A stretch of DNA of 64,000 bases from Antedon mediterranea (taxonomy: Eukaryota > Animalia > Echinodermata), in NCBI RefSeq assembly GCF_964355755.1, contig NC_092673.1, positions 12,806,948 to 12,870,947 on the forward strand. Reading direction: 5' to 3'. The notes beneath the pieces were generated by a model. That model had not been told where the DNA came from. It made no database searches and saw only the letters and a program-made list of their open reading frames with translations. Shown here one piece after another: positions 287-56,539 of this stretch (within the stretch, counting starts at the first letter, position 1; the number at the start of each line of letters is the position of its first letter). Position numbers and translations under genes: made by a program.

Positions 287-3200
287 GCCAGTAGATATTA
301 GTATCCTCTATAGAGGCTAGTTTATTTATTTAGATTTACTTCCCTACTACACCTTTAAATCATTAGCATACTTAATAATTACAAAGGTGCATTCTTCAGA
401 AATAACAAAATACAACAAAAACCTCATTATTAATAACGATGAGAATAATGGTGAAAAAAAAAGGATAAATGGTAATAACCTCCCATAAAGCCTATAGCTC
501 CTGGATCAAAATATTATCTTCCACTATCCAAAATTTGAAAATGTCTGCTATCAATCACCAGTTACCCCAAATGAAGAATTACTGTACATGTATGTTGCAT
601 AGGCTGCTATAAATATTAAACTACTATATTTTTATTTAGCCTGCAAGAGAAATACAGGAGGCCTAGAGACTGTAGAAACTAATTACCTTAATTCATCTGG
701 ATCAAGTGATGATGAGATTAAAATCTCTAATCACACAAGTAAGCGTAGTGGTAAGTTTGATATGTCATTAATTTTTAAAACTACTTTTATTAAATAGTAC
801 TTGATGTTGATGGTTGTGCTGTACCTAAAAGATATGGACATTGCTGGTTGTTTCCATTTGTGTCTGATTCTATGGTCAGGTTCTAATGTTATGTCTGTAT
901 GGTATGTAAATAGGTACGACTGTCTAATGAACAAGGCACCTGCACAACCTGTAATTGAACACTCGAAAATTGAAATTGAATTATCTGAACCGAAAAAAAA
1001 ATTGTTTGTCAAAGAATTAAAAGTATCTATATATTAATGCGAATTAGTCACCTAGTTTTACGTAACCTCCAAAACTTCTGAAACCGTATTGACTGATCAC
1101 ATTTTCCGCAATTGGTACCATATAATTGTTATTTTGTTTGTTTGTTTTTTTTGCCAATGGATAATGTAAGTTTATTCTTTCTGTAGAAAAAAGGAAAAGG
1201 AATCACCTACAGCCAATACACAACTTGTATTTGACCTGCTGTTGTGCATTAATGTGCATTGGTATGCTAAATTTTAGAGAAATAAAACAAACAAGGGAAG
1301 CTTTTCAAGCAATGACCGAATATGAACAACGCTGTTGGATCCTTAAAATATTTCAATGAACATCTCAGCACATCCGGAGGTGCCACCAAAATCTGTCTAC
1401 TAGTTGGTGCTAACAAAGTTTGTGCAAAAGCATGGATGTTAGTAAATGGTATTGGCCGGTCAACTTTTTACAAAATAAGGAAGCAAGCTATTGGTAATTA
1501 ATTGTTTAGTTTTACAGTACATTTTACATTATTTAATTTTACATGCTGTTAATATTACTTTTAATGTATGTGTTTAAATGTTGCTGAAACGGAAAGATTA
1601 CTGTGACTGTGTGAAGATTACTTTCCATTATACTTATAGTCGTATTATACAGGGACATAGGCAGGATCTGACGAGGAGTGGAGAATAACTTTTTTTTAAA
1701 TGAATAGAATGCATTTGATTATTGTTTAATTATTTTTACACAATAAAATTAATATGCTTAACACTATGTTAGAAAGATAATGCAAAATGATCATAAGTCA
1801 TTAATCAATGGATTAAACCAAACAATAATAAAATAGTACAGTATTTGAAATTCCTAATATTTGAAGTTTACATTTTATTTCTTTTTAGAAGGATGCTGTT
1901 ATCTTTTACCACCCAACTTCACCAGAAAGATGGTATATAGCAATTCAACTCAACAGTGTCGGGCTTGGTTTATTAAATTTTGTAATGAATACGGTGATCA
2001 AATGCCAACTAATGGACAAATCCATCTACCATCAACGCTTACCAAACATGATGTGTACATGCATATGAAAGATGAGTTTGAGCTAAGAAATGAAGATGTG
2101 TGTGCATTAGCGACATTCTACAAGTTTTGGTGTGTTGAATTCAAGCATATTGTAATACCTGAGGTATGTTTACGTTTTTACACTTATTATGGTTTGTACC
2201 AATGGACAAAATCCATGTCATCTTCATTGACTGAAGTATTTTTTAACGTATTTTCAATGTTATGCAGAAAGTCCTGTAGGTTCAATTTTCATTCATAATA
2301 AAATACTGGAAAAACATACTGTACAATCCAGATGCATGTATGATGGGCCTCACAACTCCTTCCCTACATTCACTATATTGAATGCAAAATTTGTTTAATT
2401 TTATATTTTTACGTGCTGTATTTTTTCAATTTTATTTAATAGGAAAATCGTTTTGCAAAATGCAGCAAATGCACCAGAATTAAATTTGAGCTGCACAAGA
2501 CAAATCAAAAGCAAAAACGGCAAATACTAATGATGAAGAGAGAGAAGCATTTACGAAAACAAAAGTAAGTATGCCTACCTATTTTGTGTACAAAACCAGT
2601 AGTTTAAACCTTTCAACAAGAAATTCTGTTGAACTTGTATACCCGGTATTACCATAGATAGGAAAAATAATTATTGCTTCCACTGTATACCTCCTCTATA
2701 GTATTATTAGTGTTTTTAAAAATAATTCTAACTTAATAAAATTAAGAGTGATTGAAATAAAACAGAAAATAACGGGGAAAAATGGTAGAAAATGAAAATA
2801 ATTATTGTGTATGAACAATGAATGAATAAAAGTGGTTGTAAACAAAAAAAGAGAAAAGATAAACAAAATCATTATTATACAAAAAACCTCTACATTTAAT
2901 CAATAATTTTAATAGATTAGAAGTAAAGCATTGTCTCATCTTGTCTTCGGCTAATAGATAACATATAACTAAACAAAACAAAAATTTATTATTAAATGCA
3001 AAATAAAACTATAAACATATGATTTTAATTTTTCAGTATTGAACGTCGAAAGTACTATAAACATATGCAGAAAGCAAGACAGAATCCCAACAAGTATTTG
3101 TCAATAATTATCGATGGAATGGACCAAAGCAAGACTGATTTACCATCTTTTGCTTGCGAATCAAAAGAAACGTCGAAGATGTGGAAACTAGCCACACATG

Positions 3201-3655
3201 TAACTGGTGTTCTGGTACATGGGCGACATGGGCACTGCTTCATTGACCTAAAGCAGTTTCCACATGACTCAAACCTAACCTGCAACATTATACTGACGGT
3301 GCTGTCAGAGATACAACCTCTACCACCAGTCTTATATCTGCAGTTGGACAATAGCGGAAAGGATAAAAATAAAAACAGATTTGTTTTTGCCCTATGTGCT
3401 CTTCTTGTAGAGTTAAAGATTTTTCGAAAGGTAAATGACTATACATTTATAAATGATATATAAATAATAAAACAGTATACACAGTGCACTTTAAAGAACC
3501 CAGTTCATCATTCATTTACCCTGTTCTCGTTCACCACAAAATATCCCCTGTGTTGGGTGATTTCCACCAGCCTAATAGGACATTAATTAATTTACTATTG
3601 GTAATTATCTATTAAGACATAAAATATTCAATAACATTCTAGTCTAAATAGATGA

Positions 3656-4915
3656 GGCCAAAAAAAAAAAATAGTTTGTTTGCTGTCATCCGCCGCCCCT
3701 AATTTCGCCAAAAATTTGGGGCGGAAATAAGAAAAAGTTTTTTTTTTACGTTGAGGGCGCTTTAAAAAAAAAATTTTTTTTTATAATTTTTTTTGGCCGA
3801 AAAGGTGTAAAAATCGAGTGTGCGAGGATGAAACAATAAAAATAATAACGTAGCGTATATTTCGGTGTATAATCGCACTTTTGACACGCAAATTTAACCT
3901 CTAAATTAAGGGTGCGTCTTATACACCGAACATAAATGCCTCAACACACAGATATCGCCACCTCGTTGGCTAGGCCTGGGCTTTTTAAGGTAAGGCCTAT
4001 TAGTATTACTAAAGTCTAAAGAGTAGGCCTAGCCTAGCTACAGTGTACTAGCGTAACAGCAACCTGCTAGTTTTCAAGGCATTTTAGCGTGATTTTGTAC
4101 TAAATATGATGAAAAGATTTAGGCGCTCCGATAAAATTTCATTTGAAAACGACGTTTACGATTGGAATAGTATTATATAGTTATACGCACGACCGTCGTA
4201 CCCCCAGCGCGAGCGAGCCCTTCTTGGCAACCACATTGTTTACACAGTATTCGACTAGTATATTCTCCAGTTGATTATAGCATAGACCTAGCGTACACAC
4301 TTCAGGATACATAGATACTAATCGAATACGATTGTCCGTGAAAACGTGCGCCTCTCGATAAAAGGATCGAGCGAGGCTAGCCCACACACACGTGTGGTCA
4401 TGCACTCGATATTGCGGGTGCGAAACTCATTCATAACAAGTTAGAAAGAACTAACGGAATGGGGGACTTCCCTTCTTGTTGAGGCTACTGGGCGCGGCCG
4501 TCTTATACATCGACGATATACAAAATACCGATATTTTACTCTCAGTTAGGGGTCGGGTGCGTCTTATTATACACAGGTGCGACTTATACACCGAAATATA
4601 CGGTACACTAACTTCTAAAAATTAAAATATTTAATTAGGCCTGCTAACAACGACCTACTGTGTAGTAGTAGGCCTAGCCTAGGCTAGTTTAGACACGGGG
4701 CCTAACGCGCCCAAAACAGAATTAAAGTGTGAAACAAATTATGAATAGATGTTTGAGCTCGTTGTTTTATTCAGTGTGTTTTGTTACTCTCAAATTCGCG
4801 AGCAATTAACAGAAAAATTAACATTAAAAAAAAAAAAAAAAAAAAATTTTTCCACCCGCCCCCCTACCAAAATAAAAAAACTTGACAGCAAACAAACAAT
4901 TTTTTTTTTTAGGCC
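3656..4915. mobile_element. Non-autonomous TIR element (GGCC ends, Zator/Harbinger-type 3-bp TSD) inside an intron
   Basis: GGCC-A(n)-TAGTTTGTTTGCTGTCA at the left pairs with TGACAGCAAACAAACAA-T(n)-AGGCC at the right. TGA lies on both flanks (3653-3655, 4916-4918). Confidence 0.8.
3853..4603. mobile_element. pogo/Tigger-type MITE nested in the previous element
   Basis: TIR (G/C)CGTATATTTCGGTGTATAA.TCGCAC at both ends with TA flanks. Confidence 0.85.
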
Positions 4916-6700
4916 TGAGGAAAAAATGGAAATATACTAAAAATGTATTTTTTTTATTTTGCTTTGAAAAGTTTTAATTTTAAATCATTACTTCTTTTAC
5001 TCTTTCAGATAAAGATTGGGTTTTTAATGGTGGGTCACACTCACGAGGATATTGACCAATTATTTTCATGTGTGGCCAAATACCTGAACAAATATAGAGC
5101 ATCTACACTTGATCATCTTCGAAGTGCTGTTGAAAACTCGTACAAAAAGTTGCCGATTACATCAAGTATCATTTCCTATCTGCATGACATTAAGAACTGG
5201 TTAGTACCATACATGCAAGACATACGTTACCACAGCAAACCACACCAGTTTAAGTTTGTTTTGGCTCAAACCGGAAAATGCATCATGTCCTATAAGAACT
5301 GGTCAACGGATTGTACTTGGTGTGAATGTGCAAGAGAAATGGACACACTTCCATATTTGCTCAAGGAAAGCCCTGCTGATATACCAGTGTTGTGTACTCC
5401 TGATTTTAGTAATGCAGATATACCAAAGTTAAAAAAAAGTCTGGCGTCTGTTGCAAATTTTTTGCGAATAGAAGAACGTGACTGGTGGGAGGAATTTTTA
5501 AATAATATAGAAGAGATCACAGAAGGTATGTACTGTACTACATTGCATGTGTGATGTTTCACCATTTTACACATATATTTTTTGGTTTACAAGAGAATTT
5601 TGATTTTAGTATAGATTCAGCAGCTATACCAAAATTCAACTCTTTACTCCACACAACTATGTTGGGTCACATTCACCAATGCATGCTTCCACTGATAATT
5701 TTATGTGAGAACCTAAAATTATCAAATAACATGAACGATATCTAGTGGAGTACACTGGAGAAACATGCCTCCTGATTAATTCATAAGATAAAATCAATCA
5801 ATCAGCATCTGATTAGCATGGTGCGCAATGTATTGGCCCAGCTTTTATGCAACAAACACCTCAGCATAAATATATCATGATATTTTGTATGAATGTATAT
5901 TATTTACTTTTTAAAACTAATGCGTACTCTTTTTTTTTAGGAAATGAACAGCGATTTTTGCTCCATGACATCATTTTTAATGACAACAATGCAAGCCCTA
6001 TGAGGGAGGAATCTGATGGAAACGAGACAGACATTAGTGACTCGGATAATGAAAATGAAATAAGACCGGTATGATAAAGATATTATAGATTTTCAAAATT
6101 ACATCTTTGAAACATGTAATGCAACATAGTTTAAAGCAGTGCTTATATTTGGGATATGATCTCATAATCGCATCAAGCAAATGCATCAACGAAAATTCTA
6201 TATTTTTAGGGTTGTAAGAAAAATGATTATGACTTTTCTATGCTTTCTCCCACACTACTAGGTACACATTGGTAAATTTTCGAAGCGTAAGCCACCACAG
6301 CAACTCGATGTTGGTGCTATGGTAGCAACAGCTTTAAGGAGATATCCCACAGAATGGCCTCGGATAGGCAAAATATTCAGCATAAATAACAATGAGGTAG
6401 AAGTAGTGTGGTACACTGGAACGTATACTTCCCGGTTTGTTCTGTGTGAAAAAGATGGACAAGAATGGCGAGAAATAATATCGAAGGAGGAGGTGATAAG
6501 TATATTTAATTTAACACCAACTAGTAGATTGCCTACCAATGTTATTGTTAAATTAAAAGAATTAAGAGATGACTTTTTAAATGAAAGTTAATGCAGGGAG
6601 TTTTACAACTCACTGGTTGTCACAATAGGGTGCACATTAATGGAATTTTACATGTATAATGAATCTAAAAAAAATATTTAATTTTCAACCAATTTCATAA

Positions 6701-12345: not shown

Positions 12346-13460
12346 TGATAATGCAGCACTGCTAAAAAAAAACCAGATGTGCTGATGTTGACGCACCTGC
12401 TACATGTGCTGACACTGATACATCTGCACCAGACGCAACTTCTAGTAGCAGCAATGATGACAGTAGCATACACTATTTCCTTTACGAAGCGATGGGCAAT
12501 CGCCGTAAGTTTTTTTTTATACATGTACTTTTATCTTGTTGTGGAGAAAATACAAATTGACCCCTGCCTACAAAAAACGTACATTTTGATTATTTTGCAT
12601 TTTGTACAAGATGATTGTTCTCCTAAAAAAAAAATGTTAAAATTTTGTTTTTGCATGCCATTTTAATGTCACATAATAGTTATCCACTTTGACCAAAAAT
12701 TTGATAGGAAAACAAATATTTACTTGAAAAAACTGTAATTTAAAGCAAAAAAATAGTCAAATTGGATTGTTATAATAGTAATACTATGACTTATTTGCAA
12801 CGCAGTATTTAAGATTGTTTGTGTCGCCAGTAAAAATTATCTCTTTAACAGGTCAAAATTGCTTGACAAAATCGACCAGCTAACTCAAAAGCAGCAAATT
12901 ATGGAAACAATGCTGGAGAATATATTGAATGCAGTCACCTCACAACCACCACCATCGCTACAACCACCACATATTTCGATATCCCAGCAGAAGGAAGCCA
13001 TGACTCCTCCACAACCAGCTCAGCCCTCGCCACCCCAGCTAACGGAAGTCGTCGCCCTCCCACCAAATCAACAACAGCCACCGCAACACCAATCTACAAC
13101 CAGATCGCTGTTAGCAATTGTAGCACAACCACGACTACAACCCGGGCCAACAGGAATGGTGCTGGTTGGCGGTACGCATCCAGTTTCAAATGAAGATTAT
13201 CATCGCGCAGTATCAGGTACATCAAACGCGAAATCATTTACCCGGCATTTGACTACTGTTCAGAGCACAGGAGAATCTAATCTAACTGGGTCAAAGGTAA
13301 AAATCAATGGAAATACCATCATTCGTAAACACTGTCACCTGATCGCATGACCGCAATGTTCCGCCAAGTTGAACTACAACACCCTGGCTCAATTTCAACT
13401 CAACAAAAAGCCATTAGAGAAGCGGTAAATGGCAAGTGCCAATCACACCGCTTTAATAAT
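12346..13460 (+). pseudogene. BEN-domain gene remnant (type A), with a coiled coil and Pro/Gln linker
   Basis: Exon-like 12346-12505, then a last exon from about 12852 with GMVLVGG..SNLTGSK..(frameshift)..MFRQVELQHPG..IREAVNGKC, collinear with 32388-32903. Confidence 0.7.
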
Positions 13461-15007
13461 AGACAATAATATATTAAATCTTGTTTTTAAACTGATCTTG
13501 TATTGTTATTAAATTTTTTATTTATTCGTATGTATATTTATAAATGCTAATAAAATTAAATTGAGTTTAGTATTGTTTTCAATATTGTTTTAAATATGTA
13601 AAACAATAATATATTCAATTTTGTTTTTAAACTGATCTTGTATTGTTATTACATTTTTTATTTGTTTGTTCTCGTTCGTTCTCGTTTTCACTCGAGCTGC
13701 AAGACATAGATCCTATACTTCAATATCGATCGTTTTCACAATGTTGTAAAATAATGGAAATACAGTACTGACTACAAATCATGTACCCTAAACCGCGTTT
13801 GTCACGCGTGTAAAATGTGTGTAATTGCCGCGGACCTGTAATCGGCGTGTGGTCCATGACGTCAGCTACTTCCTGCTACAATGTGGAATTCACGGTCCTT
13901 GACGATCGTGAAACAGTGCGTGCTTGAATAGTTGTTGTTTATTTAATTTGTGTTAAGGAACGCGACCATGATTATGTAACCAGAACACTCCTGTCACTGT
14001 AATGTAACAAAGTTTACTTCTGTCTATTGTTATCCATAAAAAAAAACCAAAACAAAGGATGAGAATTTGATGATTTTAGAAGGCCAAATGTTAGAAATAA
14101 TAATCCAAACACCGAATGTCGAATTGGTTTAATAATAAATATTCTGTTCGGTTTGATGTATAAATTGCATTGCATATATTTTTCCATTAAAATTAGCCTA
14201 ATCGAGTATTAGTCCAAGGCCACAAATCATTGCGTGTTTATTCATCAGGCGATAACGGCTCTCGGCGGCCAATTCCACTGGCTCATTGTACTTGTTGAGT
14301 AGGGCCTACAACGCGACATTTCCAGTTACTCTAGTAATTTTAATAATTAACAACGTATAATATATAATCCGTCATAAACAAAACAGTAACTAATTTTTAG
14401 GCCTATTTCACTCTATACACTCTACGGCATGCATAGCGTGTTGGTTTTGACCTTAGGAAATGGTATGACCCAACCAATCAACGCATTCCACTCCACAGTA
14501 CTCTACAGTATAAACGGAAAGTTTCCAGATTTAATTTCTAGTCATTTTAGTAATTACAAGGTAAAATTTATATTCATAAAAACCCAACGAAAGTTTTTAT
14601 GAAAAAATACACGTCAAAATAACAATAACATTTACATCATTATTTGCGAATGGCCAATTAAATTCGTTCGTTTTTGATGACGGAAACTTAAATTGAAAAT
14701 ACTTTAGTTGATGGAAACTTCTATTATATTCTAATATGAAAAATAATATTAATGTATTATATTACAAAGTTTTTGAACTGTGTCTGAATGATTGATGCGA
14801 TATCCAGAAAAGACTTCTAAAAAAAAAACAAAAAAAAAAAACCTCTATATTTTAAACGTTTCCGACGTATATTTATTTATAAACGTATATTTGTAATGCA
14901 AAATAGATAATGTAAACAAACCCAAATGTATGTACATTTAAACATTCATTTAAAATATGCAAAATTGGTATCCATTTTTTATCATGCATCATCGTGAAGG
15001 AGATATC

Positions 15008-15083
15008 AGCCAATCAGATTGTTTACGTCGTCGATTGGATAATTCCTTTATAAGATTTGGGCGTGGTTCTTGACAGGTATAAA
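15008..15083 (+). promoter_or_regulatory. CCAAT/TATA promoter of the Tc1-like gene
   Basis: AGCCAATCAG at 15008-15017, inverted CCAAT at 15034-15038, and TATAAA at 15078-15083, about 40 nt before the ATG at 15120. Confidence 0.55.
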
Positions 15084-15119: not shown

Positions 15120-16105
15120 ATGAAAGGTCAACTATCATTGTATCTGAGAGAACGGATTGTCCGTTTGAACGAGCTGGGCATGCGCCAAAGAAGAATTGTT
15201 GATGTTCTCCGGGAAGAAGAGTAGGTGGAAGTTGAGAGACACACTGTGGGGAGAATAATTAAAACTTACAAGGAAACCGGTTCATGGGCTGCAAGAATTC
15301 GATCAGGGCGTAAACCAAAATTCACTATCGAGCACGCTCACTTCATTGACGACCTTTACCGAGATGATGATGAGTTAACTTCCTACCAAATATCGGGTAT
15401 CTTCCGTGACGTATTTGATCTAAATGTTTAGGCATCCACAATAAGAAGAAGCCGAAACAAGTTAGGATGGAAGAAAAGCGGACCAAAATACTGCCAAATG
15501 ATTAGCGATGTAAATAAGGTGAAGCGGTTAGAATTTTGTACCCGAATGCTAGAGGATGGAGATATGTTTGAAGACGTGATATGGACTGACGAGACTTCCA
15601 TTCACCTGGAGCAGCATGGAAAGGTGTGCTTCTACAAAAAAGGAGAGGAGCCAAAACTTAAACCAAAGGCTAAACACCCGGTAAAGGTTCACGTTTGGGG
15701 GGGAATCAGTTTCAGAGGTACCACCAATTTCCTAATTTTCGGGAGAAACATGAATGCGGAGTTTTATGTTAACGCTGCAACCGTATAGTCGTCACATGTT
15801 CCCTGATTCACATAGTTTCCAACAAGACAATGATCCTAAACATACAAGTAATTTATCCACACGATATATGGAAGAACATGGGATAAATTGGTGGAAGACT
15901 CAACCCGAATCACCAGATCTCAACCCGATTGAAAACGTCTGGCATCAACTGAAGAATAATCTTCGACGACATGCAAAACCAAAAAATCAACAGGAACTTA
16001 TCAATGGCATAGAAAATTGGTGGAAAACCACATTGACACCTGAATTATGCGGCAGATACATCCGACATATTCATAAAGTGATAGCTGTCGTGATCCGGAT
16101 ACTGA
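15120..16105 (+). pseudogene. Tc1-like DD34E transposase
   Basis: N-terminal HTH, RSGRKPK, IWTDET, VWGGIS and FQQDNDPKH...SPDLNPIENVW with 34 residues between the second D and E. Two in-frame stops and small deletions. The likely native C-terminus is SGY*, with TGA at 16103-16105. Confidence 0.93.
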
Positions 16106-16134
16106 AGTTTAAGACCAACATTTTCAAAACAAAT

Positions 16135-16170
16135 GGCTCTTTTCAGAGCCACAAATTGACAAAAGAGATT
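16135..16170 (+). terminator. Histone-type 3' stem-loop plus HDE-like element
   Basis: GGCTCT-TTTC-AGAGCC at 16135-16150, A/C-rich 5' flank, ACAAA after the stem, AAGAGATT at 16163-16170. Confidence 0.88.
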
Positions 16171-16838
16171 TGAAAGTATTACATTTTGCCAAACCACACA
16201 CTTACAAAAAACGAGTCATTCATCATATTTACATACAATATAAAAGTATAGTATACAACATTCCATTCATTAAAATATGAAAATTAGTTTTATTCAAACA
16301 ACTTAAGAAATGCTAAGCCTTAAAAAGTACATAAAATAATATATCAATGATTGAGCACTTTTAGTGGATATGTGCGCTATATAAATTATTTATTATCATG
16401 ATTGCAGCGTTGTGTTGCATGTACGGTTGTTCAGTTTCATGTATTTTGTTGTTTATGTGACCACTAGAGCGTGAACAGCGCGTCTACACAGTATAATAAG
16501 ACCTGGGATTGAAAACATAAAATGGAATAGAAATGTTGTACGGTCATGCTTAAATTTAATCAAAATAAAACTATGGTAATTCCAATTCTTAATTAATTTG
16601 ATAATTATCAAGTCAGATTCTTGAACATTGCGAAAATGATTGAAACGTCAAATTTACCTGAAATTATTCAATCTGTCAATATTATATTAATTTTTATTTG
16701 TGTATGCCTTTTATGTTGTGTGTTATTTCACACAACATGTTATTTATTATTATAATAATAATTATTATTTAGAGTTTAATGTGGTATGTTTTGAAGGTGA
16801 CTGGTTTCTATGTGGGGTTTGCCATTTTAAATGCTTTA

Positions 16839-16868
16839 AATCTCTTTTGTTTTTTTTGGAAAAGAGCC
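16839..16868 (-). terminator. Damaged histone-type stem-loop plus HDE-like element
   Basis: The minus strand reads CAAAACAAAC-GGCTCTTTTC-C-A(n)-CAAAAGAGATT. The 3' arm AGAGCC is missing. It begins 18 nt after the TAA of the BEN gene. Confidence 0.7.
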
Positions 16869-16886
16869 GTTTGTTTTGAGATATAA

Positions 16887-17490
16887 TTAGAAATCGATGA
16901 ATGGTTCAGCAGGTTGGGGTTCTTGAATTTGTTGCATCGGTGCTCGTGGTTGGAGTGGTGCTCGTGGTCTGGGACTTCGCAGACACCTGCATCCCTCGTC
17001 GATCGCTAACACACAAAGCTTCCACGTTCGTGTTTGTTCATTCAATGGAATTGTATAGGATTTGATGACTCAATGGCCCTGTTTTCCCATTAACGTTACT
17101 CATTCGCATCTCATTCTTGGTGAATAGTTTTCTAACAAGTCCGAGTGCAAAAATTTCTTTTAGAAGTGGCCCACCTTTTGACTTCTGCAACGGCATCTCT
17201 ATGCAGTACGTCGTCACCCACAGAGTTGCGGGGGAGGCGACACAGTTATTTTAAAATTCCTGGGCGATCAGTTCAGAGACGATATTTTTTATATTTTGCG
17301 TCAGGTCGGCCAACCAAGGAGGGGCTTCATTATGTTTTGTGTCGATGTACTCACGTAGTCGCCGTTCCATTCCTGCAATACTGTCAAACACATCTACTGC
17401 TGGGGGTACTTCAGGTTCTGGTTCTTCTACATCTGACTCTTCAACATGCATACCATCGCCTGTTACGTCCCCGCGAAGAAACACCCTGGG
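16887..17490 (-). pseudogene. BEN-domain gene 3' part (type B), convergent with the Tc1-like gene
   Basis: The minus strand, across frameshifts, reads ...ATSKRNF-ALGLVRKLFTKNEMRMSNVNGKTG...TWKLCVLAIDEGCR...EPFIDF*, with the stop at 16887-16889. Confidence 0.8.
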
Positions 17491-17496
17491 TACCTG

Positions 17497-18066
17497 TGGC
17501 CGTATTCACCAATCTCACTTAGGCTAAGGGAAATACTTACCCTTAAAATTTAAGAATTCCCTTAACAAAGGAAAACACTTAAGGGGTATTCACAAATGAG
17601 TTAAGGGATTCACTTACCTAAGGGAAACCCTTACTTTTAAGTAAAACACTTAAGGGAAAAATATATCAATATTCATGAGTTTCCCATTGTCCAATCAAAA
17701 AGAGAAACAATGTGTCCAATATCCAATCACTTTCCCTCATTCAAACCTCATTTGCATATTCAATGAAAACTTTTGCTGGCAACAAAAAAATGGCAGCAAC
17801 TAAACGAAAACCTAATTGGAAGGACGAAGAAAAGGAGGTGTTGGTAGCCGAGTATGGAAAAAGAAAAAATATTTTAAGAGCTGCTTTTGATAGTAAAATA
17901 ACCTATCAACAAAAAACAACAGCCTGGCAAGAGATTACCGCTGCTGTCAAACAAACAAATCCAACTGCCGGCAGGGACCAACAAAATGTCCAAAAAAAAT
18001 GGGAAAACCTTGTGTCGCAGGCTATGCAGAACATTACATCGTTCAAAAAAGACATTATGCAAACAG
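17497..18066 (+). mobile_element. PIF/Harbinger left end with a Myb/SANT-like exon (ATG 17790, donor after 18066)
   Basis: Terminus TGGCCGTATTCACCAA, repeated CACTTAAGGG subterminal motifs, and protein KRKPNWKDEEKEVLV...KTTAWQEITAAV...RDQQNVQKKWENL. No right end found. Confidence 0.75.
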
Positions 18067-18442
18067 GTAAAATTTAGTTTAATATTATGACTGTTTGTAG
18101 TCCTATAAATACGTTTTAATGCCAAAATGTAGTTGTTGTTAGGGAACATCACTCCAATGGAATAGGCCGATATGCTTCTTTACTTAGACTAACTTTAATT
18201 AGTTTTTTGCCGGAGATAGGCCCTAGAGGCCGGGAGGCCTTTTATTTAAAAACAAAGTTGATCATGATTGATTAGTTAGGAGGACTCGCGATAATACACG
18301 CCCACCGTACAATAGATAAAATAAATCGTAAATTTTGTTTAAAGTCTTAGAGTAAAAAAATGGGCATTGAAATGTGTGTGGGTGTGTGTGTTAACAACCC
18401 CAGAGTTAAATTATTGAATAAACTTTTTTTTAATCAACTTAC

Positions 18443-18836
18443 GTCTTTGACCTTCGGTTTTTTTGCAGCCTGTTTTGGTTTCGGTGTCGACGTTTTTGTT
18501 AGCATTGCCGCACGCTTTGACGTTGTCGGTTGCTCGTCGTCATCGGTATCACTATCAATCAGAGTCTTCTTCGCTATCCACGTCAGTGTCTTGGGCTTGC
18601 CCACTCTTCAACAATTTTCTTTCCAATTCACGCAATTCATGGGGATTATTGGACAGTTTGCGGATGACTGCAGGGAGCAAATTCCCCTCCCATAGTACCT
18701 CCACTGCTGCTCCAGACGAAACATCACCGACGATCAATTTTGTTTTAACGATACTTAAACTTTCTTCTTCGGGAAAGTAAACTAACGCCTCGCATGGAAT
18801 ACTTGAACGTTGACGAGCTGACATAGGTTTAAACAT
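18443..18836 (-). pseudogene. First exon of a BEN-type accessory gene (ALVYF N-terminal domain)
   Basis: EALVYFPEEESLSIVKTKL..VEVLWEG..IRKLS aligns with HALVYFDSDESTAIVLSKKL..VKMVYNK..IVELS at 30143. GTAAGT donor at 18442. TATAAAA (18888-18894) and CCAAT (18914-18918) lie upstream on the minus strand. Confidence 0.7.
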
Positions 18837-19240
18837 TTTGTTGATTCAGAAAACTGAACTGGTACATGAACATTGAAATGCTCGTACTTTTATAGATTGT
18901 GAGCCCTGCTCTGATTGGCTGGAGAACATAAAACTTTTAACATGCACAAACATAATTGTACACAATTGGTCAGCTAGCTTTTCTCATTAACGTAACGCCC
19001 ACCCACACAATAACAAACACCAATCCATCTTTATTTGTAAATGTGATAATTAGCTCTAAAATACATGAGTTAAAAAATATTTATAAATGTTTGTGCAGTT
19101 GATTTTAAAAAAAAACACATTTTAAAGATAAAAAGAACAATAAAGTATCCCATACTGCGCGGTACACATATGCTTTCGTTCAAACCCAGCAAAATACTAC
19201 ACACAACTAAATATAATATATATATATATATATAATTATA

Positions 19241-25215: not shown

Positions 25216-27527
25216 ATGTTAAATACAAGCAATCACAAACCTTCAAGACTATTGACAAATTTGTTAATTGACACTTCGAGTGAAAACGAAAACCGGCCTC
25301 CTGTAAAACGAGCAATTGTAGACAAATTCCCGCAAATTATTGAAATAGCTAAAAACTTTATTGAAAGAAGTGGATTTGAAGCACATCGACGTCGCCAAAG
25401 CACCACCGGACACTGTGGAACTGGTCTGAAAGCGGTTCGGGACCATCTTCTTCACGAAGTACCAGGTTTGGCTGAGCAGCATCCCAATTTTAGTAAGTAC
25501 AACATTTGATAAATTATTATTTATATGGATATCCAAGTATATTAAATATATAATTAAACTAGGCCTATGAATCCGGGACGGGGACCCGGATGGATAAATC
25601 GACATAGCGTCGACTTTTGTAATTTACCTAGTATAATCATAAAGAATTTTCCATGGTATAATGTGATCATGCAAAACAATGACAACTTTATTAATTTTCT
25701 TTCTGTACTGTGCACCGCATGCTACAGGCCCCTCATCAAGGTCGTAACAGTTCAGCAAGGTACAAAGGTTTCATTGATGCTAAAGTTCCAAAAAAAGATA
25801 ATGGAAGGATGAAAGAAAATGACAATGCTCATTTTTACAATGCGAGGGTGAAGTATTGCCTTCAATTAAGTGCAGCATTTCCGGATGTGTGTAGTGTATA
25901 TTCTGTTGACAACAAAAACAAAGTGAAGATAGGTAAGATCAATCATATACAATTAAGAATTTTCAAATGTAACATCCACAGAATATTAACGGCCATACAA
26001 AATTGGGTGAGAATGTTAGGTGGATTCTGAAATAAATATTAATTAAAACAACTTATTTTACATTTAATTTGAATTGCTTATGATAATCTTGAAAGAAAAG
26101 CAGTTATGTAACGCAAAATTGTCGGCGAGGGAATGAATGAGAATGGGTTTTGATGATAATCTGGAAACTCTAAAATAATTTTGTGAAATGTGCTATATTT
26201 CGTTGGAAAATACTTTTCTTTAAATTAATACATTATTTCTTTATTTAAGTGTACGAACCTAAATACAAAGTCATATCAATTATAACCAAGCCCTACCAGT
26301 AGACCATACAAAGTGTCTTGAGAATGTGTATTGCGTCAACTCTATGTTTGTATTACTATTATTATTATATTATTATTATTTATTGTTTTTATTTTTAAAG
26401 GAAAAGATGTCCCAGCTGTTGATCGAAGGACAAAAATAAGAAGAATATTTCCAACCATTGACAGGCCGGTGCTTTTAGATCACGACTTCCCAAGTCATTC
26501 AGGCTACCTAATTACATTATGTGGATATATGAAATTGACACTACCTAACCCCCCTGAAAAATCGATTGATTCGCTAGGTCGGCTAGAATACAAACTACAT
26601 AGGAATGGCCCCGTTACCATCATTAACAGGGGACCCATGACAAAATGCACCGTAGCCTCCCATATCAACGACCTGCTGCCAATAGTGAAAGAGGAAGTCC
26701 GTACAGGAAAATCAATTTTAACTATAATTGCAGATGGCGGGTGCGACTTTAATTCCGGTCATCATACAAATTTACTATATTATGCTAGACTGTTTAGAGA
26801 TACTGGCTTAGATGCTCTGATTGTGACAGCGTATGCTCCAGGACAATCGGCTCTAAATCTGATCGAACATGCGTGGGCTCCTTGTACATTAGCGTTAACG
26901 TCTGTTATGTTCACGGATCGACTTGAATGCGAAGACAGACCGCCATGGCAGCAAGGTTTAAACGAAGAAGAAATGCGTCTGAAAGAATGTAAAGTATTTG
27001 ACAACGCACTAAAAAACTTAGAACAATACTGGAAAAGTGTACATTTTAGCGGCGTTCCGATTAGTGTAAGCCACTTATTGTCTTCGTCAAAAGAAACGCC
27101 TTATGATGACTACAGTCAAGTGCACGCTGTTATGGCGTCTAACAGCGGGAAAACGTTCAGACAAAGCAATCTTGTAGACGAGTCCCAGTTTATGCTTCAA
27201 CATATTGATAAAAGGAAAGGTTTTTTAGTTTTTTCTAAATGTAGAGACCCTAACTGTACACATTGCAGCCGCAATCCTATAATTGCCCACGATGTAATGA
27301 ATGCCTGTTTTAATAGGGATGGATTTCCTTCACCCATGCAAAGCGAGAAGGAAGGACACTTCCTCACCATTCATGAGGTATTAAAGTTAAATTCATGGGA
27401 TACTCTCGATCAGCTGATGCCACCTGCTGGTGGAAGATGTGCCATTTGTCCCGCATATGGATTCAACAGCAACGCAGAGATAACTTCTCACAGGAGAAAG
27501 TACCATCCAAGGCAGCAGGTCCTTTAG
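25216..27527 (+). CDS. Zator-like DDE transposase (spliced, possibly damaged)
   Basis: Exons at about 25216-25491, 25715-25932 and 26401-27527. Motifs SVDNKNKVKIG, LDHDFP, IADGGCDFN and AYAPGQSALNLIEHAWAP, plus a C-terminal C2H2-like CAIC..HRRKYH. The exon 2 acceptor is not clean. Confidence 0.8.
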
Positions 27528-28512: not shown

Positions 28513-30142
28513 TTAACAATAACGTGGTTTGTTCGCGTACCATAGTATTTAATAATTAGCATAATATCAATACATTTATTGGACAATGAACGAACAGTAA
28601 AACAATACAGAATGAATAAAAATCATACGGTACAATTTCTGTGACTTAATATACTATGGACTTAAAACAATGTATTAAACGCCCAATTGAATTTCGCTGT
28701 TAGTTTGAAAATTAACAGAAAACGATACACGAGTGCACTGAATATCGTGCTAAATATAGATATATTTGTACTGTAATTTCTATTGAAAAAGATAGATTAA
28801 TTTACAAATTGTTTTAACAACGGTAATTTTTCAAAAAGAACAGAACAGATTTGCTTATATTATTGTGGAGGAACCTGTACCATAGTATACTATATATTTC
28901 CAATTCACCATAATGCCTAAAAGGGGAGGTGGTTTTATAGCTGTCACTGCTTGCTGCTTCTTTGGTACTTGACAAATCACACCTCAATATGCAATTAACT
29001 GATGACCAGATCTTCTCTCTCTAGTATGTAAAAGCGTTGGATAGAAATTCTAATTATTAACCTTTTGTATTATAATCCTTTTGTATTTCGACACTGTTTA
29101 TATGAAGCTATTTGACACAGCTGTTAAATTGTTAATTTCAGAAGCCATTGAATTTGCCCTTTGCGTTGGCTTATTATTTTTCGTTTATTTTATTATTATC
29201 CTTATTCTATATTTTATTTTAATAAATGCAGTTTACTTGTTAGGCCTTCGTTACGACTGCTCAGTACCAGATTGCCTGATTTTGAAAATTGTCTTCTGTT
29301 TAAAATATTGATGATAATAAAAAAAAGTGGTCCAGAATTGGGATCCCATAATACTATTGAATACTCATTGACCCATATCTGTATGTGGTTTCAATGTGTT
29401 AAAGATCTGGAATAAGTTCGTTTTAGTAATCATGCTACTAACATAGACTACATAAACCCCCTTGGCGGAGGTAATAAACACACATTAAAAGAATACATTT
29501 TGACGACTTTTCTACTACTACAATGACGAACACAGGTATTAGCCAAATATGTAACCTGTTTAAATTACTCCCACACAAATTCACAATAGTTGTGATCTTA
29601 TTCAAGTTGTTCACACTATTATACTTTCTTACACTGACGGTGTAAAATATAGTTACTTATAGTTAATTAATTTGCTTTATTTTCAATTCATTATGTTCTT
29701 AAAAATGAGTTTTAAATCACATATCGAAGACTGTGGCTGCTGATAATTTTGAATTTTTAGTATTGCAATATCTCTTGTGGGGAAGCGTGAGGTACCTATA
29801 TTTAAATTAACAATTTTAATATTAATTTTTGTATTTGTTATACTGTTTTGTGAACACCTTGCAAATTGTTATTTTCAAATCCCATTATTTGTGCATTTGT
29901 GTTGGCTTTTAGTCGTAGATAATTTGGCTGTTTATTTTAATATACAGCATTGTTTTAGTTTTCATTACGTAATATACCACGCCTTCACTGTTTACCTGAA
30001 GCCTGAGAAAGTTTGATTTGAGCATCTTTGGAATGCGTCCCTGTGCAGTCCAGTAAACAATAGTGTCAATAAATGCACAGTCGAGGCATCCATAACTATC
30101 ACTTCATCATAATTATTTCTACAAGTAACATCGAATTTTAAA

Positions 30143-32903
30143 ATGTCTCTACGCCGTCAGAAAACTGTTGTACCAGAACATGCTTTGGTCTATTTTGATT
30201 CAGACGAAAGTACAGCAATTGTACTATCTAAGAAGTTGCAGGGAGACAAAGTTCCTAACGGTGTCGTTAAAATGGTATACAACAAACAACAATTAACGTG
30301 CCGCATTGTGGAACTTTCTGATACATCTGATGATTTAGTTCACAAAGACACACTGTTCTGGGAGAAACGCAAGCGAAAGCTTGGTAAGAAATGTTATATT
30401 ATAGTTATTCATTCAAATAGTGAATGAATAATATTTATTTTAACTTCTTAAATACCAGACCTACTGTTGTACTTGCTGTCGAATGTTATCGTGAACATAC
30501 GAGTTGACGTAATACAGACATTATCCACGCATTGTACGTTCTCGAGGCTGGTCGATTATTTAACAATTTTTACGCCAAAATTGATAAAAATGCGCACTAA
30601 AAAAATGTATATTTTGCATATTACACTTTATTATAATTATATTTAAAATATTTAATCGTACCTCAATATTAGCCTATATAACATGTATTTTGTAATGGCA
30701 CAAGCCATATTTGTAACAGTAGGCCTATTGTTTTTTCTGAAATCATAATAAAATTAAATTATAGGCGCAATCAAATTTTAAACCTAATGATTTAATATAT
30801 TTATGACTGTACTTTCTTTTATTAAATTATAGACTTAAACTTAATATCCTTTATATTTTGTCATTCCTGTATAACTGATTAATCATTTTATATCGACAGA
30901 TGATGACTCTGAAGTTACTGTTGACTCCCCTAACAAAAAATCATGGGAAGAATGACCCCAGGAAAGATGTCAACACAGAAAATGAGAGACCAAAGAAAGA
31001 CCAAACGGAAAATGAGAAACCCAAGAATGACCAAACGGAAAATGACCAAACAGAAACGGAGAAACCCAAGAATGACCAAACGGAAAAAGAAAACCCCAAG
31101 AATGACCAAACGGAAAATGACCAAACAGAAACGGAGAAACCCAGGAATGACCAAAGGGAAAAGGAGAAATCCAAGAGTGACCAAACGGAAAAGGAGAAAC
31201 CAAATAATGACCAAACAGAAAAGGAGAAACCCAAGAATGACCAAACAGAAAAGGAGAAACCCAAGAATGACCAAACGGACAAGGAGAAACCAAATAATGA
31301 CCAAACGGACAAAGAGAAACCAAATAATGAGCAAACGGAAAATGAACGACCGATCCCGAATTTTGACATCCAACCCCAGTCACCCAACGCCGTAATCGTG
31401 ACGGAATTCGAGAGTCCATCGGAAAGCGGTAAGTCCTGCAATTTGTTTTGTTTAAAAAAAGTAAATAACAACATAAAATCACAGTAATAAGTAACATCAT
31501 GAATAGTAATTTACATTAACGATTCAAATATTACATACACACAAACTTGGAGAAGCAAAATAATGAAACAAAACGTGTATATTCTAGATTAGATTAATAC
31601 CTAAAAATACAGACTCCAACGACGGCATTTTAATAACGGTGTGTAACGTTTAATAACAGCATATAAATATATTATGAAACCCTCGAATTTATTTACTAGA
31701 CAAGTAATTGGCAGGGCTCCAATGGTATGAACTACCCTGGGTAAATAAATGAAATAAATAAATAAACCATTATGTTGTTCCCAAACTAGGTGTTGTGTAT
31801 AACAATTATCATTGACATTTTTTTAATTATAGACATTGAGCTTGATATCGATTCCGACCTTCTTGTCGAAGTCCTTGCTGGTCCTCTATTGAGCAGCACA
31901 GTCTTAAGTAGTAAGTATATATCACTTTGAATAATAGTAAGTATTTGCCTTTGGATTTATGTACTATTCTAATGTTTTCATCAAATGCTGTTGTGGGTAC
32001 TTTAAAACAAAGAAATCTATCTATATCTTTAGTACTGTATAACTACTTTGGCTCTTAAATACGTACCTCATTCTTTGACAAATAACAGGACTCAATTTTG
32101 ACATTTCCAACTGTTACCTATTTCATTGAATTTATTTATTTTGTATTATCTTCCCAACTTTAACTTAAATGGTTTTTTTTTCTTTTAATTTGTAAAAATC
32201 GGTGTTTTGACCCATTTTAAACTATACACAGTGAATGTAAATTAATATTAACTTGGCACCGCATTGGCCTGTTATATTTTTGATATTATAAAAACGTTGG
32301 GCATCCTATACGATTATATTAAATGAATGTTATACATTTCTTCTTTCAGATCAAACTGGATGTACGGCATGCGCTTGCGCAAAGTGCATGAAGGTCCCAA
32401 ACATGCTGGAAACAATTATAACAAATCAAAGAATTATTATGCAGCAGCTAACCACCCGGTTAGGTTATACTCAACAAGTGCAGCAAGTAGCAGCTCCGCC
32501 GACCAATGCCTTACTTGGTGAAACAAATGGTAAAGCTGACAGTAATGGCATTGTTCATATAGGGGGGCTGGTGCCCGTAGCCGAGGAAAAGTACAAAGCC
32601 GCAGTTGGCGTTGGCAAAAATAAGTCAGCAACAAAAATGACTAGAAGACTGCTGGACATAATGTTCACACAGGAGGAGCTAGCAGTATCTAATTTGTACG
32701 GCTCTAAGAAAATAGAGAATGGCAAACTTGTCACAAGGCCAGCACTAGAAGCGCCACGTTCGCGGGCACTTTTCAGACAAATTGAACAGGAATTTCCTGG
32801 TGCCACCTCAGACAATTATTTAGCTTTAAAAGAGGCTGTCAATAGTAAATGCCGAAGAATTAGAGAAATACTTAAAGGTAGTGAAAATGTAACACCAAAA
32901 TAG
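30143..32903 (+). CDS. Four-exon BEN-domain protein gene (type A), with one apparent homopolymer frameshift
   Basis: Exons 30143-30383, 30900-31428, 31833-31910 and 32350-32903 with phase-1 GT-AG junctions. The last exon has CxxCxCxxC, a coiled coil and the BEN-like TRRLLDIMFTQEELAVSNLYG...LFRQIE...KEAVNSKCR. The A-run near 30935 is one base too long to keep frame. Confidence 0.75.
30980..31345 (+). repeat. Coding 30-bp minisatellite (EKPKNDQTEK)n
   Basis: Repeated GAGAAACCCAAGAATGACCAAACGGAAAAG variants, open in frame. Confidence 0.92.
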
Positions 32904-45740: not shown

Positions 45741-47245
45741 CGTCGTGAGGTGGTTTCCCGATTAATCGTACGATCAAACGGTACTGGGTATGATCAACTA
45801 GCGTTCGTGTTCCCACCTAATCATCCATTCATAGAAGTACTGATGAAGATATCAATCTGTGGCGACAATAGAATGGACCCGAGACCTGGCTATCTTCGAC
45901 TTTTAAATAATAGAAAGTTTAGAAAAATGTTTTTGTTAAACTAGAAATGTACGTTGTATGTATATAGAAAAATGGTTGTAATTTTCAAAATTACGTTGTA
46001 TAAGTTGCGATGTGAAAAACTGTTATTTTATCGTTAGTTGTCGTGTACATAAAGCAAAAATATAAATAGCCTATAATAAAATAAAATAAAAATCGTTAGT
46101 AAAACTTTTAAAAAGAGTAAAGATATAAGGAAGAAAAGCAAAGAGATCATGGAGCGGCTGTACCAGAAAATACAACACTAAGTATTGTAAAGTTAAAAAC
46201 TAAAAATTTAGGCGATCTTGTCAAAGGTCAAGCGCCTTCAGCCTGCCACGTTTCGATATTCAATATTGAACTTGACCTGACGTGGTTCCACAATATCTTT
46301 ATATGAAAATGGTAGAATTGATAGAAAATAATAATTAATTCAAAATTTACCTAAAAATGGTTTTGAACTGAATCGATGAATGTCTTGTCGTCGTATGGTT
46401 TTGGTTTGGTTTAAAAGTATGTTCGATAAAGTGCGTGAGCGTATTAGAATGAAATGCTAGCGTATACAATGTGCGCGATGTCAAGTTGTGTACTGTGTGA
46501 TACATGTAAGATTATAAGTGTATCGTACATTGTAGTAGAGCGAAAATAACATAGGTATAAAGGTAGGATATAAATAAGTAGTATAGGATGTATAGAAAAG
46601 GGAATGGGTTGTTAGTTACAGGAAAGATTTTGAATGTCGTGAGGTGGTTTCCCGATTAATCGTACGATCAAACGGTACTGGGTATGATCAACTAGCGTTC
46701 GTGTCAAGTTCAAGGTCAAGTTCAATATTGAATATCGAAACGTGGCAGGCTGAAGGCGCTTGACCTTTGACAAGATCGCCTAATTTTTTAGTTTTAACTT
46801 TACAATACTTAGTGTTGTATATTCTGGTACAGCCGCTCCATGATCTCTTTGCTTTTCTTCCTTATATCTTTTTTAAGTTATACTAACAATTTTTATTTTA
46901 TTTTATTTTATTTTATTATATTTATGTTTTTGCTTTATGTACACGACAACTAACGATCAAATAACAGTTTTTCACATCGCAACTTATACAACGTAATTTT
47001 GAAAACTACAACCATTTTTCTATATACATACAACGTACATTTCTAGTCTAACAAAAAATTTTCTAAACTTTCTATTATTTAAAAGTCGAAGATAGCCAGG
47101 TCTCGGGTCCATTCTATTGTCGCCACAGATTGATATCTTCATCAGTACTTCTATGAATGGATGATTAGGTGGGAACACGAACGCTAGTTGATCATACCCA
47201 GTACCGTTTGATCGTACGATTAATCGGGAAACTACCATACGACAC
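45741..47245. mobile_element. Foldback element with ~540-bp inverted arms
   Basis: 45741-46279 is the near-exact reverse complement of about 46713-47245. ORFs 45750+ and 47238- translate almost identically. Confidence 0.85.
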
Positions 47246-48387
47246 TAGAGTCTTTTGATCCAACAACCATAGCTGAAAACTGGTTATCAGAAGGGCAGCG
47301 AAGCAGGAGGCCTATGTATAGAAAATTGCCTGATGGATTGTACTACAGTAGTTCACTGAATGAATGATCCCTGGCAAAACATTATATTACTACTGTCATA
47401 TCTTACATTGTATTCTTTAATCATTTAATAACAAAATAAAGTTATTGGTTGGTTGCCTCTGATGGTAGTGTTACTGTTGTACATGCAGTTTGCTTTAGTG
47501 TGTTTTGGGGGTTTTTTTGTACGTGGGGTGCGGTTAGGGGAAGGGTGTCGATGAACGAAGTTGATCAAGTGCTACTAACAAAATTTGTGGTGCTACCAAA
47601 AATTATTATGAGCCATCATAAAAATGTTATAGTGCTACCAAGTGAAAAAGTTAATTTTCAGCTCTGTTATGAGTTATTGTTTTGATGAAACAATTTGATG
47701 AATTTTCCCTTGACGTAAGGCCTACCTGTACATCCCTTATTTATTTATTATAGGTCACACACACACGTGTAACAAATGAGATGATGACATTACAACGAAT
47801 ATCTAACTAAAAATTTGCGACTTAAGGTTCCCCATTATTGCAAATTTATGTTGAGATGTTTGACATCAAAGTAATATACTGTAGCTTTAATAAGTGTCAA
47901 AAATGTGATTATGTAACTCATATTCTTATAAATAAAAAACACAAATAACAAAACAAAATAAACAAAACCGAATTGATTAAAAATGGAACTAAAAGGTTAG
48001 AAAACTGTATAGTAGTAATACTAATAGTAAGCAATGTCAAACCAAAAAATATATATAATAATCAATAGAATAACAGGATGCATTCATATTCAACGAATAA
48101 TCACTTTAATTTGAAAACATAGAACTTCATAAAAACAAACAAAATAATAACAGGAATAATGCTATCGACGAAAGGAAATAATGCAGAAATTGCGTCCCAT
48201 ACATCTTTCGAGACAAGTAGGGGGTTACCCCGGTGTACTAGATCACACACAACAGCCACTGTCACAAACTCATCATATACACTAGGCCCTCTGGAAGAAC
48301 AGTCTTTGACTGAAGAGGCTACCCAGTATAATAAATAAATAACTCAAACACTCAACGATTAGCTCGGCAGAAACGTGCTGCTGAATA

Positions 48388-51300: not shown

Positions 51301-52347
51301 GGTGTAAAGATTTTTTTTTTAATTACAAATATTACCAGTAGGCCTAAATAATGATATTAGAGCGTAATAATTGGATTCTAAAAAGTTCATATTTTGGATA
51401 ATTTTGAGAAAATGGAAAATTAACCCTCTTATTTTTACACCAACCAGTGATATTATTAGAGCGTTTCCGTAATAAGTAATTGAATTCTTAAAAGTCCATA
51501 ATTTGGGGTGATAAAAAAAATCTCTGTACTAAATAATTGTTTTACCTTCTTTTTTTTCGCTAAGAAGACTATTACGAAACTCGTGTTCGTCGTACAGCTA
51601 AATTCGTGAATGTGGGAACCGGTCATTCCACTGTGGTGTCGTTTGTCAATTTTTTATTTTTATTAATGTTAGTATTGCTACCCATATCGATTGTTATTAT
51701 CGTCGTTGTTTTATACTATTAATAGAGAGGCCCTTGGTGGCCACTTGCACCCCAAAATGTGGACTGGAAAAAAAATAAGGCGGGTGTAATTTCTTACAAA
51801 GGCACAAAAAAAAGATACTGATAGCAGTAATGACAACAACCTAAAATAATAATACTAATAATAATTAACGTTCTATATTTTATTATTAATCATTATTGAA
51901 TACGCCCAAGACGTATTCAGTTTGTACATAATATCTAAGATCTAAGACATAATATAAAATTACTAGAGGGCGCTATTAGTTTTAAACAAACTGAACAATA
52001 GAATATCCCAAAATCCGATTAGAGTTTCTTTAATTAGTGTTTCGATAATTTCTTTTCGTTTGTACGGTAATATTTAGTATATTTACTTTAAGCATAGTTT
52101 ACTTTAACCATTTGAACTGTTTGCAGGCTTCTTAACACATTTTAAAGAATAAATAAGCGATTTTAAAGGCCGGACCAGTTTTGGCCTAGCCGGACCTGTT
52201 TTAGCGGCTGTTCAACGCCAAAATTGATCCGACCGGACCAGTTTTGGCGACCAAAATCGATCCGGCCGGATCAATTTTGGCGTGACAGGCCTAGCAATAT
52301 TCGATTGGATTTTCCAGCACCGGACCGGAACCGTGCCGGAACAGGTG
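48388..52347. mobile_element. Palindromic MITE split by the Ginger insertion
   Basis: Left arm AAGGGTCTTTCACACCTGTTCCGGCAC at 48388; right arm ...GTGCCGGAACAGGTG resumes at 52300-52347. Confidence 0.75.
48489..52287 (-). mobile_element. Ginger1-like element, internally deleted (integrase C-terminus plus OTU domain)
   Basis: TGT...ACA termini, ~235-bp imperfect TIRs and a GGCC 4-bp TSD. The minus strand reads NIETAQKRQKINYDRRH..F..G..VLMKDLRRKKRKGGKLENKW (GPY/F region), then RMRGDGTC.FRALSY...GTWGSELEI...HVEPV (OTU), all frameshifted. Confidence 0.82.
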
Positions 52348-52349
52348 TA

Positions 52350-56500: not shown

Positions 56501-56539
56501 GATATGAAGAGTGGCGACCTCTTAGTAGAATGGGATTAG
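53538..56539 (+). pseudogene. ~1000-codon CxxH-type DDE transposase (hAT/P/Kolobok-like fold, family unresolved) with an N-terminal Lys-rich coiled coil and a C-terminal Spindlin-like Tudor domain
   Basis: Three consecutive ORFs joined by one frameshift (about 54597) and one in-frame TGA (55343-55345). Motifs YDGTTK, SMTDR, FFCAMH, GSRFHIL and NNISGERIFG. Confidence 0.8.

Follow-up and report, generated by a model that had tools for sequence, protein, structure and literature searches.

To our knowledge, histone mRNAs are treated as the sole animal mRNAs ended by SLBP and U7. Their 3′ ends are formed by SLBP, the U7 snRNP and CPSF73 on a hairpin (Rfam RF00032) and a downstream element (HDE), with the hairpin located 25–60 nt after the stop codon (metazoan median 30 nt), and the mRNA is degraded at the end of S phase (10.64898/2026.10.14.759114); the terms "transpos" and "non-histone" are absent from the main text of that study. 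Tc1 (DD34E) transposons are typically described as elements of ~1.3 kb with a single ORF, which encodes a transposase of ~340 aa with a paired-like HTH and a DD34E triad, bounded by TIRs of ~30 bp and TA ends (PMC7325037). A cut-and-paste element can increase in copy number when it moves from a chromatid that has been replicated to DNA that has not (PMC5371812). Furthermore, according to its abstract, one study links the histone pathway to mobile elements, as U7 snRNA represses human HERV1/LTR12 via HDE-like motifs (10.1101/2023.08.25.554787). The literature searched, which lay outside subscription journals, Repbase and Dfam, held no title or abstract on histone-type 3′ ends of transposase genes or on BEN-carrying Tc1 elements.

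The stretch analysed here, 64,000 nt of Antedon mediterranea DNA (the window), harbors a broken Tc1-type transposase gene followed by a stem-loop and a downstream element of the histone type, with the following features:

14504–14529 (+): candidate left element end, a TA and next to it a TIR-like stretch that begins with CAGT, proposed from its likeness to related loci
15010–15083 (+): promoter-like stretch with CCAAT (15010), inverted CCAAT (ATTGG, 15034), a GC-box-like word (15059) and TATAAA (15078), read upstream of the ATG at 15120
15120–16105 (+): Tc1-type transposase gene, broken and intronless (paired-like HTH and DD34E), from Pfam, homologues, alignment and the orthologue
16124–16155 (+): histone-type stem-loop (16135–16150) with its 5′ flank and ACAAA (16151–16155), from Rfam RF00032, folding and a block common with other contigs
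16160–16171 (+): purine-rich downstream element CAAAAGAGATTT, a candidate HDE, from its recurrence within the window and contig alignment

The ORF pieces of the transposase gene match Pfam DDE_3, HTH_32, PAX and HTH_Tnp_Tc3_2, and the catalytic triad reads WTDE...QQDND-(34 residues)-E, a direct count giving 34 residues between the second D and the E, so that both the DD34E triad and the N-terminal HTH of Tc1 are present. Comparison with 108 candidate proteins identified 37 homologues at E≤1e-20, many of which have C-termini reading ATGY, PTGY or ATGM. The product is a DDE transposase and no histone, and as such the gene is not a replication-dependent histone gene, which encodes a histone. Its reading frame is interrupted by premature TAG codons at 15222 and 15429, and the preliminary description had placed the native end at SGY-TGA, with the TGA at 16103–16105. 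The stretch is present in eight runs of two coded organisms (A, that of the window, and B), and four of the runs were aligned. In X5 and X7, from the second organism, both TAG positions are sense codons, while 17 extra bases at 15771 and 20 at 16093 place SGY-TGA in the frame of the ATG (15120; 340 codons); the native stop is thereby confirmed, and the two frame breaks in the window correspond to a 17-nt and a 20-nt deletion relative to the orthologue. The intronless ORF and the upstream CCAAT and TATA words were likewise found as described (15010, 15034 and 15078). The promoter words are weak evidence alone, as at least two CCAAT words occur in 6.6%, and a TATA-like word in 28%, of the 200-nt blocks of the window. 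The candidate end at 14504 resembles TA-CAGTA...AAAGTT stretches at L047, L046 and L070, among others, and repeated TIR searches found no inverted partner for it in the window.

The stem-loop (GGCTCT-TTTC-AGAGCC, 16135–16150; 6-bp stem, 4-nt loop) is predicted to fold as a hairpin and scores 38.0 bits against the Rfam Histone3 model (gathering score: 34; E 1.6e-7), being one of two gathering-level matches in the window; by composition, 7e-6 copies of the exact 16-mer are expected on both strands of the window. As in histone hairpins, it has a G-C at pair 2, a U at loop position 3 and A-rich flanks. The stem begins 29 nt after the TGA, within the 25–60 nt range of histone genes and next to their median, which agrees with the histone-like spacing proposed earlier, and the AAAG core of the downstream element, purine-rich like the element that follows histone stems at a fixed distance, is located at +11 behind the stem. 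Stem-loop, ACAAA and CAAAAGAGATTT are all in place, and the description of a Tc1-like transposase gene that ends in the histone manner is supported. CAAAAGAGATTT recurs at 16846–16835 (-) and, as CATAAGAGATTT, behind 57314. Several high-depth contigs, which are likely histone genes, span the hairpin and the downstream element. Contigs of X1, from the organism of the window, have the hairpin block in common with it, starting at 16119 or 16121, and their loose upstream ends read as histone C-termini, namely those of H3 (ERA-stop) 32 nt and H4 (YGFGG-stop) 24 nt before the stem. In sequence, the 3′ signal of the window transposase matches the H3/H4 signal of its host.

Two further perfect histone hairpins are found in tandem at 57268–57351 (+), with CATAAGAGATTT behind the second (Rfam 42.3 bits). 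No histone ORF was seen upstream of these hairpins, which sit ~740 nt past a broken ORF of ~1000 codons (53538–56539) without a significant Pfam match. Long inverted repeats at 45742–47243 and 48386–52534 are probably foldback or MITE-type elements.

Relatives were sought with an alignment of five homologues and the C-terminal part of the window transposase. The best 80 of 545 confirmed metagenome loci, ranked by similarity to P0023 and not to the window, were fetched together with 13 genome and four viral loci, and 84 of these 97 had the required ≥200 aligned residues; the 13 dropped include L080, which has the hairpin. Of the 65 relatives in this set that could be scored, 38 have a hairpin just past the stop and 27 lack it (six of the 27 being set by hand), with the other 19 of the 84 not scorable. 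The hairpin-less count includes L048, in which a decayed hairpin is visible, and L026, which has none and is nested among hairpin-bearing loci. Elsewhere in the 1.057 Mb of these loci, the same detector found 16 matches on both strands, mostly at its lowest identity. The hairpin-bearing loci, including the window, form 28, 16, 7 and 5 clusters at 90, 80, 70 and 60% amino acid identity, respectively, and the window transposase is 41–51% identical to its hairpin-bearing relatives. Among 20 loci scanned, five relatives pass the Histone3 gathering score, and most others carry a TTTA-loop variant recognized by the detector. The viral contigs yielded no relative with query P0023 and four distant matches (22–27% identity) with A2, and no match to the variant hairpin pattern.

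On a tree of 42 chosen rows, built beside a quick tree over all 85 rows, the hairpin-bearing rows fall into four subclades with support; the window branches off first within the family (support 82/80), and one supported clade unites 15 hairpin-less rows. Hairpin presence requires three changes on this tree, which 0 of 500 shuffles equal, and the supported branches force only one of them; the tree is compatible with a single origin of the hairpin as well as with several. With 27 of 65 scorable homologues lacking it, the hairpin is dispensable for the wider family.

The inspection of homologues for a stem-loop and a downstream motif after the stop, as the preliminary description had proposed, bore out both: 33 of the 38 relatives with a hairpin also have the motif AAAGTC(A)ATGA behind it, with its AAAG core 12–14 nt past the stem. 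In 21 aligned representatives, 99.2% of the stem cells pair, four pairs are invariable and the G-C at pair 2 is invariant, while the innermost pair (pair 6) is C-G in 12, U-G in seven and U-A in two. Changes of the compensatory kind sought earlier are seen at this one pair, and covariation does not rise above shuffles, 101 of 500 of which reach it. Many relatives have two hairpins, 45–90 nt apart with other hairpins between them, and in many of these the first lies 6–9 nt and the last up to 103 nt after the stop, outside the 25–60 nt of histones; overall, the first hairpin is found 6–103 nt from the stop, in some relatives outside that range. The 3′ UTRs of L003, L020, L022 and L030, for example, consist of a hairpin 6–9 nt past the stop, GC-rich hairpins and then the motif-bearing hairpin. 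The spacer sequences differ among relatives. Given the four supported subclades and the motif at a fixed distance, the histone-type 3′ end, as recognized from sequence, is a family trait of this Tc1 lineage.

A second gene, which like its decayed hairpin had escaped the preliminary description, accompanies the transposase in the window, on the minus strand and facing it (18836 to ~16887):

18889–18969 (-): promoter-like stretch of the companion gene, with CCAAT (18969, 18918) and TATAAA (18894), words read
18443–18836 (-): exon 1 of the companion gene, a conserved N-terminal domain without a Pfam name that ends at a GT donor, from tblastn and profile
17498–18250 (+), right limit approximate: later insertion in the intron of the companion gene, with a repeated end and a Myb/SANT ORF (17763–18077), from Pfam and depth
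16887–17493 (-): exon 2 of the companion gene, broken, with a BEN domain, from an iterated profile, the splice acceptor being inferred
16835–16879 (-): decayed second stem-loop, the 3′ arm of its stem lost, with a downstream element, from 75% identity to 16124–16200

Exon 1 has tblastn matches upstream of the transposase in L020, L033 and L034 (E 6e-8 to 5e-7) and profile matches in ~20 loci. An iterated BEN profile, built from Pfam-positive relatives, matches exon 2 at 17041–17250 (E 4.7e-6) and 16890–17069 (E 0.042), whereas Pfam itself gives no BEN match on the exon 2 pieces. The decayed signal lies 18 nt past the stop codon that closes the last BEN-like frame and is 75% identical over 77 nt to 16124–16200; its downstream element is intact and its stem-loop does not fold as a hairpin. 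No hairpin was detected behind the BEN genes of other loci. The inserted ORF matches Pfam Myb_DNA-bind_5 (E 1.3e-16), high depth is seen at 17267–17768, and the insertion is possibly Harbinger-like. Another broken BEN-like gene is found upstream of the transposase at 12790–13466 (+), with a profile match at 13329–13466 (E 1e-7). A second gene built like the companion (an N-terminal exon, a repeat-rich middle and a Pfam BEN match, E 8e-6) occupies 30113–32903 (+) and 26529–27527 (+), near a DDE-like ORF that is presumably Zator-like, and no hairpin is seen behind that gene.

BEN-domain genes also lie beside the transposase in many hairpin-bearing and hairpin-less loci, in divergent, convergent or tandem orientation, with Pfam BEN matches above the cut-off in L076 and below it in L005, L072 and L088. 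Two hairpin-bearing elements, L087 (~3800–6440) and L042 (~1215–5689), are bounded on either side by inverted repeats that begin TA-CAGT, while the hairpin-less L046 and L058 have a 28-bp TIR in common at different flanks. TIRs starting CAGT with TA flanks are present in all four, with only the left candidate at 14504 in the window. The BEN gene is inside the TIRs of L046 and L058, so that the single ORF of Tc1 does not hold for these elements or for the many loci with adjacent BEN genes; L087 has no BEN gene. This two-gene Tc1 lineage with histone-type 3′ ends departs from the textbook layout.

The proposal that the gene is built like a histone gene did not hold as a family property. At least two CCAAT words within 200 nt were found in nine of 33 hairpin-bearing and one of nine hairpin-less loci (background 5.7%) and a TATA box in five of 33 hairpin-bearing loci, and a CCAAT/TATA promoter as a family-wide trait was rejected on these counts. 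GT..AG introns are present in the hairpin-bearing L076, L075 and L039, so that confinement of the hairpin to intronless genes was likewise rejected; L041 and L042 are unconfirmed as having introns. Extra length of at least 40 nt occurs in five of 39 hairpin-bearing and ten of 27 hairpin-less loci, the five loci just named among them. Of 33 hairpin-bearing loci, 13 have a word resembling the RFX X-box, noticed first and then counted, in the 150 nt before the gene, compared to none of ten hairpin-less loci (background 1.9%), and the window has none there; the word lies 50–95 nt upstream of the ATG in L002, L005, L007, L008, L030, L031, L050, L062 and others. The loci are related, and none of these promoter-word counts are independent. 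The word is a possible hint of expression in ciliated cells or testis.

We suggest, with a probability of about 0.65 and from sequence evidence, that the locus derives from a two-gene Tc1-type (DD34E) transposon, the transposase mRNA of which is cut at its 3′ end by the histone machinery of the host, instead of or before polyadenylation. The transposase pre-mRNA would be bound by SLBP at the hairpin and by the U7 snRNP at the downstream element and, by analogy with the histone pathway, would be cleaved ~5 nt after the stem, a position likewise predicted for the window copy, and the message, like those of histones, would be lost once S phase ends. Transposase mRNA would then be made and be stable mainly in S phase, when moves from replicated to unreplicated DNA gain copies; since cut-and-paste elements gain copies via replication timing, such timing may be the selective reason for, and the purpose of, the histone-type end.

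The strongest competitor, to which we give an appreciable minority share of belief, is that the hairpin binds SLBP within a polyadenylated mRNA, serving export, storage, translation or decay, with the end made at a downstream AATAAA, or with both kinds of end made according to tissue. Its main evidence is the AATAAA found 20–100 nt past the stem in 16 of 34 relatives, compared to a background of 6.8% per 80 nt, which overlaps the downstream motif in 11 of the 34. The introns of L076, L075 and L039 also speak for it, as does the downstream motif of the Tc1 element in G001, the assembly with L087, which differs from that of the histone genes there. However, the motif keeps its sequence and its fixed distance of 12–14 nt in 33 of 38 relatives, mostly without an AATAAA in it, as expected for a U7 site, and within 150 nt past the stem of the window copy no AATAAA occurs, the first ATTAAA being at 16269. 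The preliminary description had named two observations in homologues that would speak against it, the lack of a stem-loop and AATAAA-directed polyadenylation; the 38 hairpins run counter to the first, while the second is in part borne out by the 16 relatives with AATAAA.

Cleavage by the histone machinery, our preferred reading, can be set against the histone genes of hosts themselves, assuming that the histones and elements of an assembly come from one animal. G001 contains a histone cluster (H1, H3, H4, H2A and H2B) with hairpins, and all five genes are followed by AAAAGAAGC, whereas its Tc1 element is followed by AAAAGTCAATGATCAAC, the AAAAG core alone being in common. Exact matches to the variant hairpin number five in G001, all outside the histone cluster, and comprise the Tc1 element, two HIRAN-like ORFs, a MULE-like transposase that also has a PHD-like region, and one site without assignment (MULE-like, PHD-like and HIRAN-like being labels given by eye); an AAAG-(T)CATGA-type motif is common to these loci. 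In L129, L130, L131, L132 and L133 of this assembly, the variant hairpin and a AAAGTCATGA-type motif, unlike the histone downstream element, stand behind the MULE-like transposase and HIRAN-like ORFs. Hairpins behind further non-histone ORFs were observed in L102–L120 (G005:C127), L106 (G004), L100 (G003) and L101/L104 (G002), namely a 106-aa ORF within a 2.1-kb tandem unit, ORFs resembling a transposase and a nuclease, and tandem hairpin repeats. In G002 and G004, the Tc1 relatives lack the hairpin and yet hairpins are present behind H3 and H4; absence of the pathway from the host was therefore rejected as the reason for a missing hairpin in these two assemblies, on the assumption of one animal per assembly. 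A search for U7 snRNA in five partial assemblies gave no match, the control likewise matching nowhere. L085, L086, L087, L088 and L090–L096 represent animal DNA (Tc1 elements and histone genes) inside GTDB bacterial or archaeal records, that is, host contamination.

The occurrence of one variant behind unrelated genes in G001, the MULE-like transposase and the HIRAN-like ORFs, as well as the hairpins at 57268–57351 of the window and a hairpin type that tracks the host and not the transposase tree, would also be expected if the hairpin cassette were itself a short repeat, either mobile or spread by gene conversion, that comes to lie behind many host genes and has no role for the transposon. We consider this improbable, as in four deep subclades with differing spacers the hairpin always follows the stop directly and on one and the same strand, and almost none occur elsewhere in the 1.057 Mb of the same loci. 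A broader form of the reading we prefer is tentative and, in our judgement, less likely than not: animal transposons may routinely hijack SLBP and U7, the Tc1 lineage re-tuning its signal per host, with some hosts using the TTTA-loop variant and AAAAGTCATGAYCAAC, shared with MULE-like and HIRAN-like genes and not with the histone cluster. The existence of a second U7-like guide, possibly one of the germline, would then be indicated, which fits the RFX-like motif before 13 of 33 transposases.

The state of the window copy bears on the claim that its signal stayed perfect while the ORF picked up stops. Read depth along the ORF corresponds to one contig in X1, X5 and X7, with no close paralogue seen. 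The frame of X7 appears open, differing in gaps only by the two extra stretches and an in-frame 3-nt gap (40 gap letters), with a hidden stop possible as two of its 21 differing letters are not listed, and that of X5 is broken by a 1-nt gap. The window and X7 differ by four synonymous codon changes per ~201 sites and by nine non-synonymous changes and two stop codons per ~765 sites, a divergence of ~2% with a pattern close to neutral, in small counts. The window copy is a dead, single-copy insertion, and a young one. The 16-nt hairpin is indeed unchanged, but this is the expected outcome at only ~2% divergence, and base 16134, just before the stem, is T in the window and C in the orthologue and most other hairpin-bearing contigs; the argument as such carries no weight, and selection keeping the hairpin after the death of the ORF was rejected. 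That the window gene is a domesticated, host-serving transposase put under histone-type control, as its single-copy depth and open frame in X7 might suggest, is very improbable, given that it is broken in organism A and in X5, that the few changes are close to neutral and that TIRs and TA ends are found in relatives sharing its hairpin.

With the full signal retained at 40–50% protein identity, such a transposase family would be a natural non-histone client of SLBP and U7, and a histone-type end would offer a cut-and-paste element a simple way to tie its activity to S phase. If these ends are real, the mRNAs would escape poly(A)-selected RNA-seq, and counts of transposon expression in invertebrates may be too low. 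A built-in comparison is provided by sister lineages that lack the hairpin in hosts whose histones have it.

Compared with the histone mRNA 3′ end, as characterized in 10.64898/2026.10.14.759114, the window has the same 6-bp stem and 4-nt loop, G-C at pair 2, U at loop position 3, A-rich flanks, 29-nt spacing and purine-rich element. The gene so ended, however, encodes a transposase, and its relatives often have two hairpins, sometimes introns and often a nearby AATAAA. The repression of HERV1/LTR12 similarly ties U7 and HDE-like motifs to mobile elements, with CCAAT/NF-Y sites nearby, but there the host represses the transcription of LTR elements, and the abstract describes no stem-loop 3′ end (10.1101/2023.08.25.554787), whereas here a full hairpin and downstream element end the gene of a DNA transposon. 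The multi-ORF DD34E relatives Tec and TBE, as covered in PMC7325037, are ciliate elements with other cargo. The elements described here share with Tc1 (PMC7325037) the paired-like HTH, DD34E triad, transposase length, TIRs and TA ends, and differ from it in their size of 2.6–6.3 kb, in a BEN gene of varying orientation and, in many of them, in the histone hairpin.
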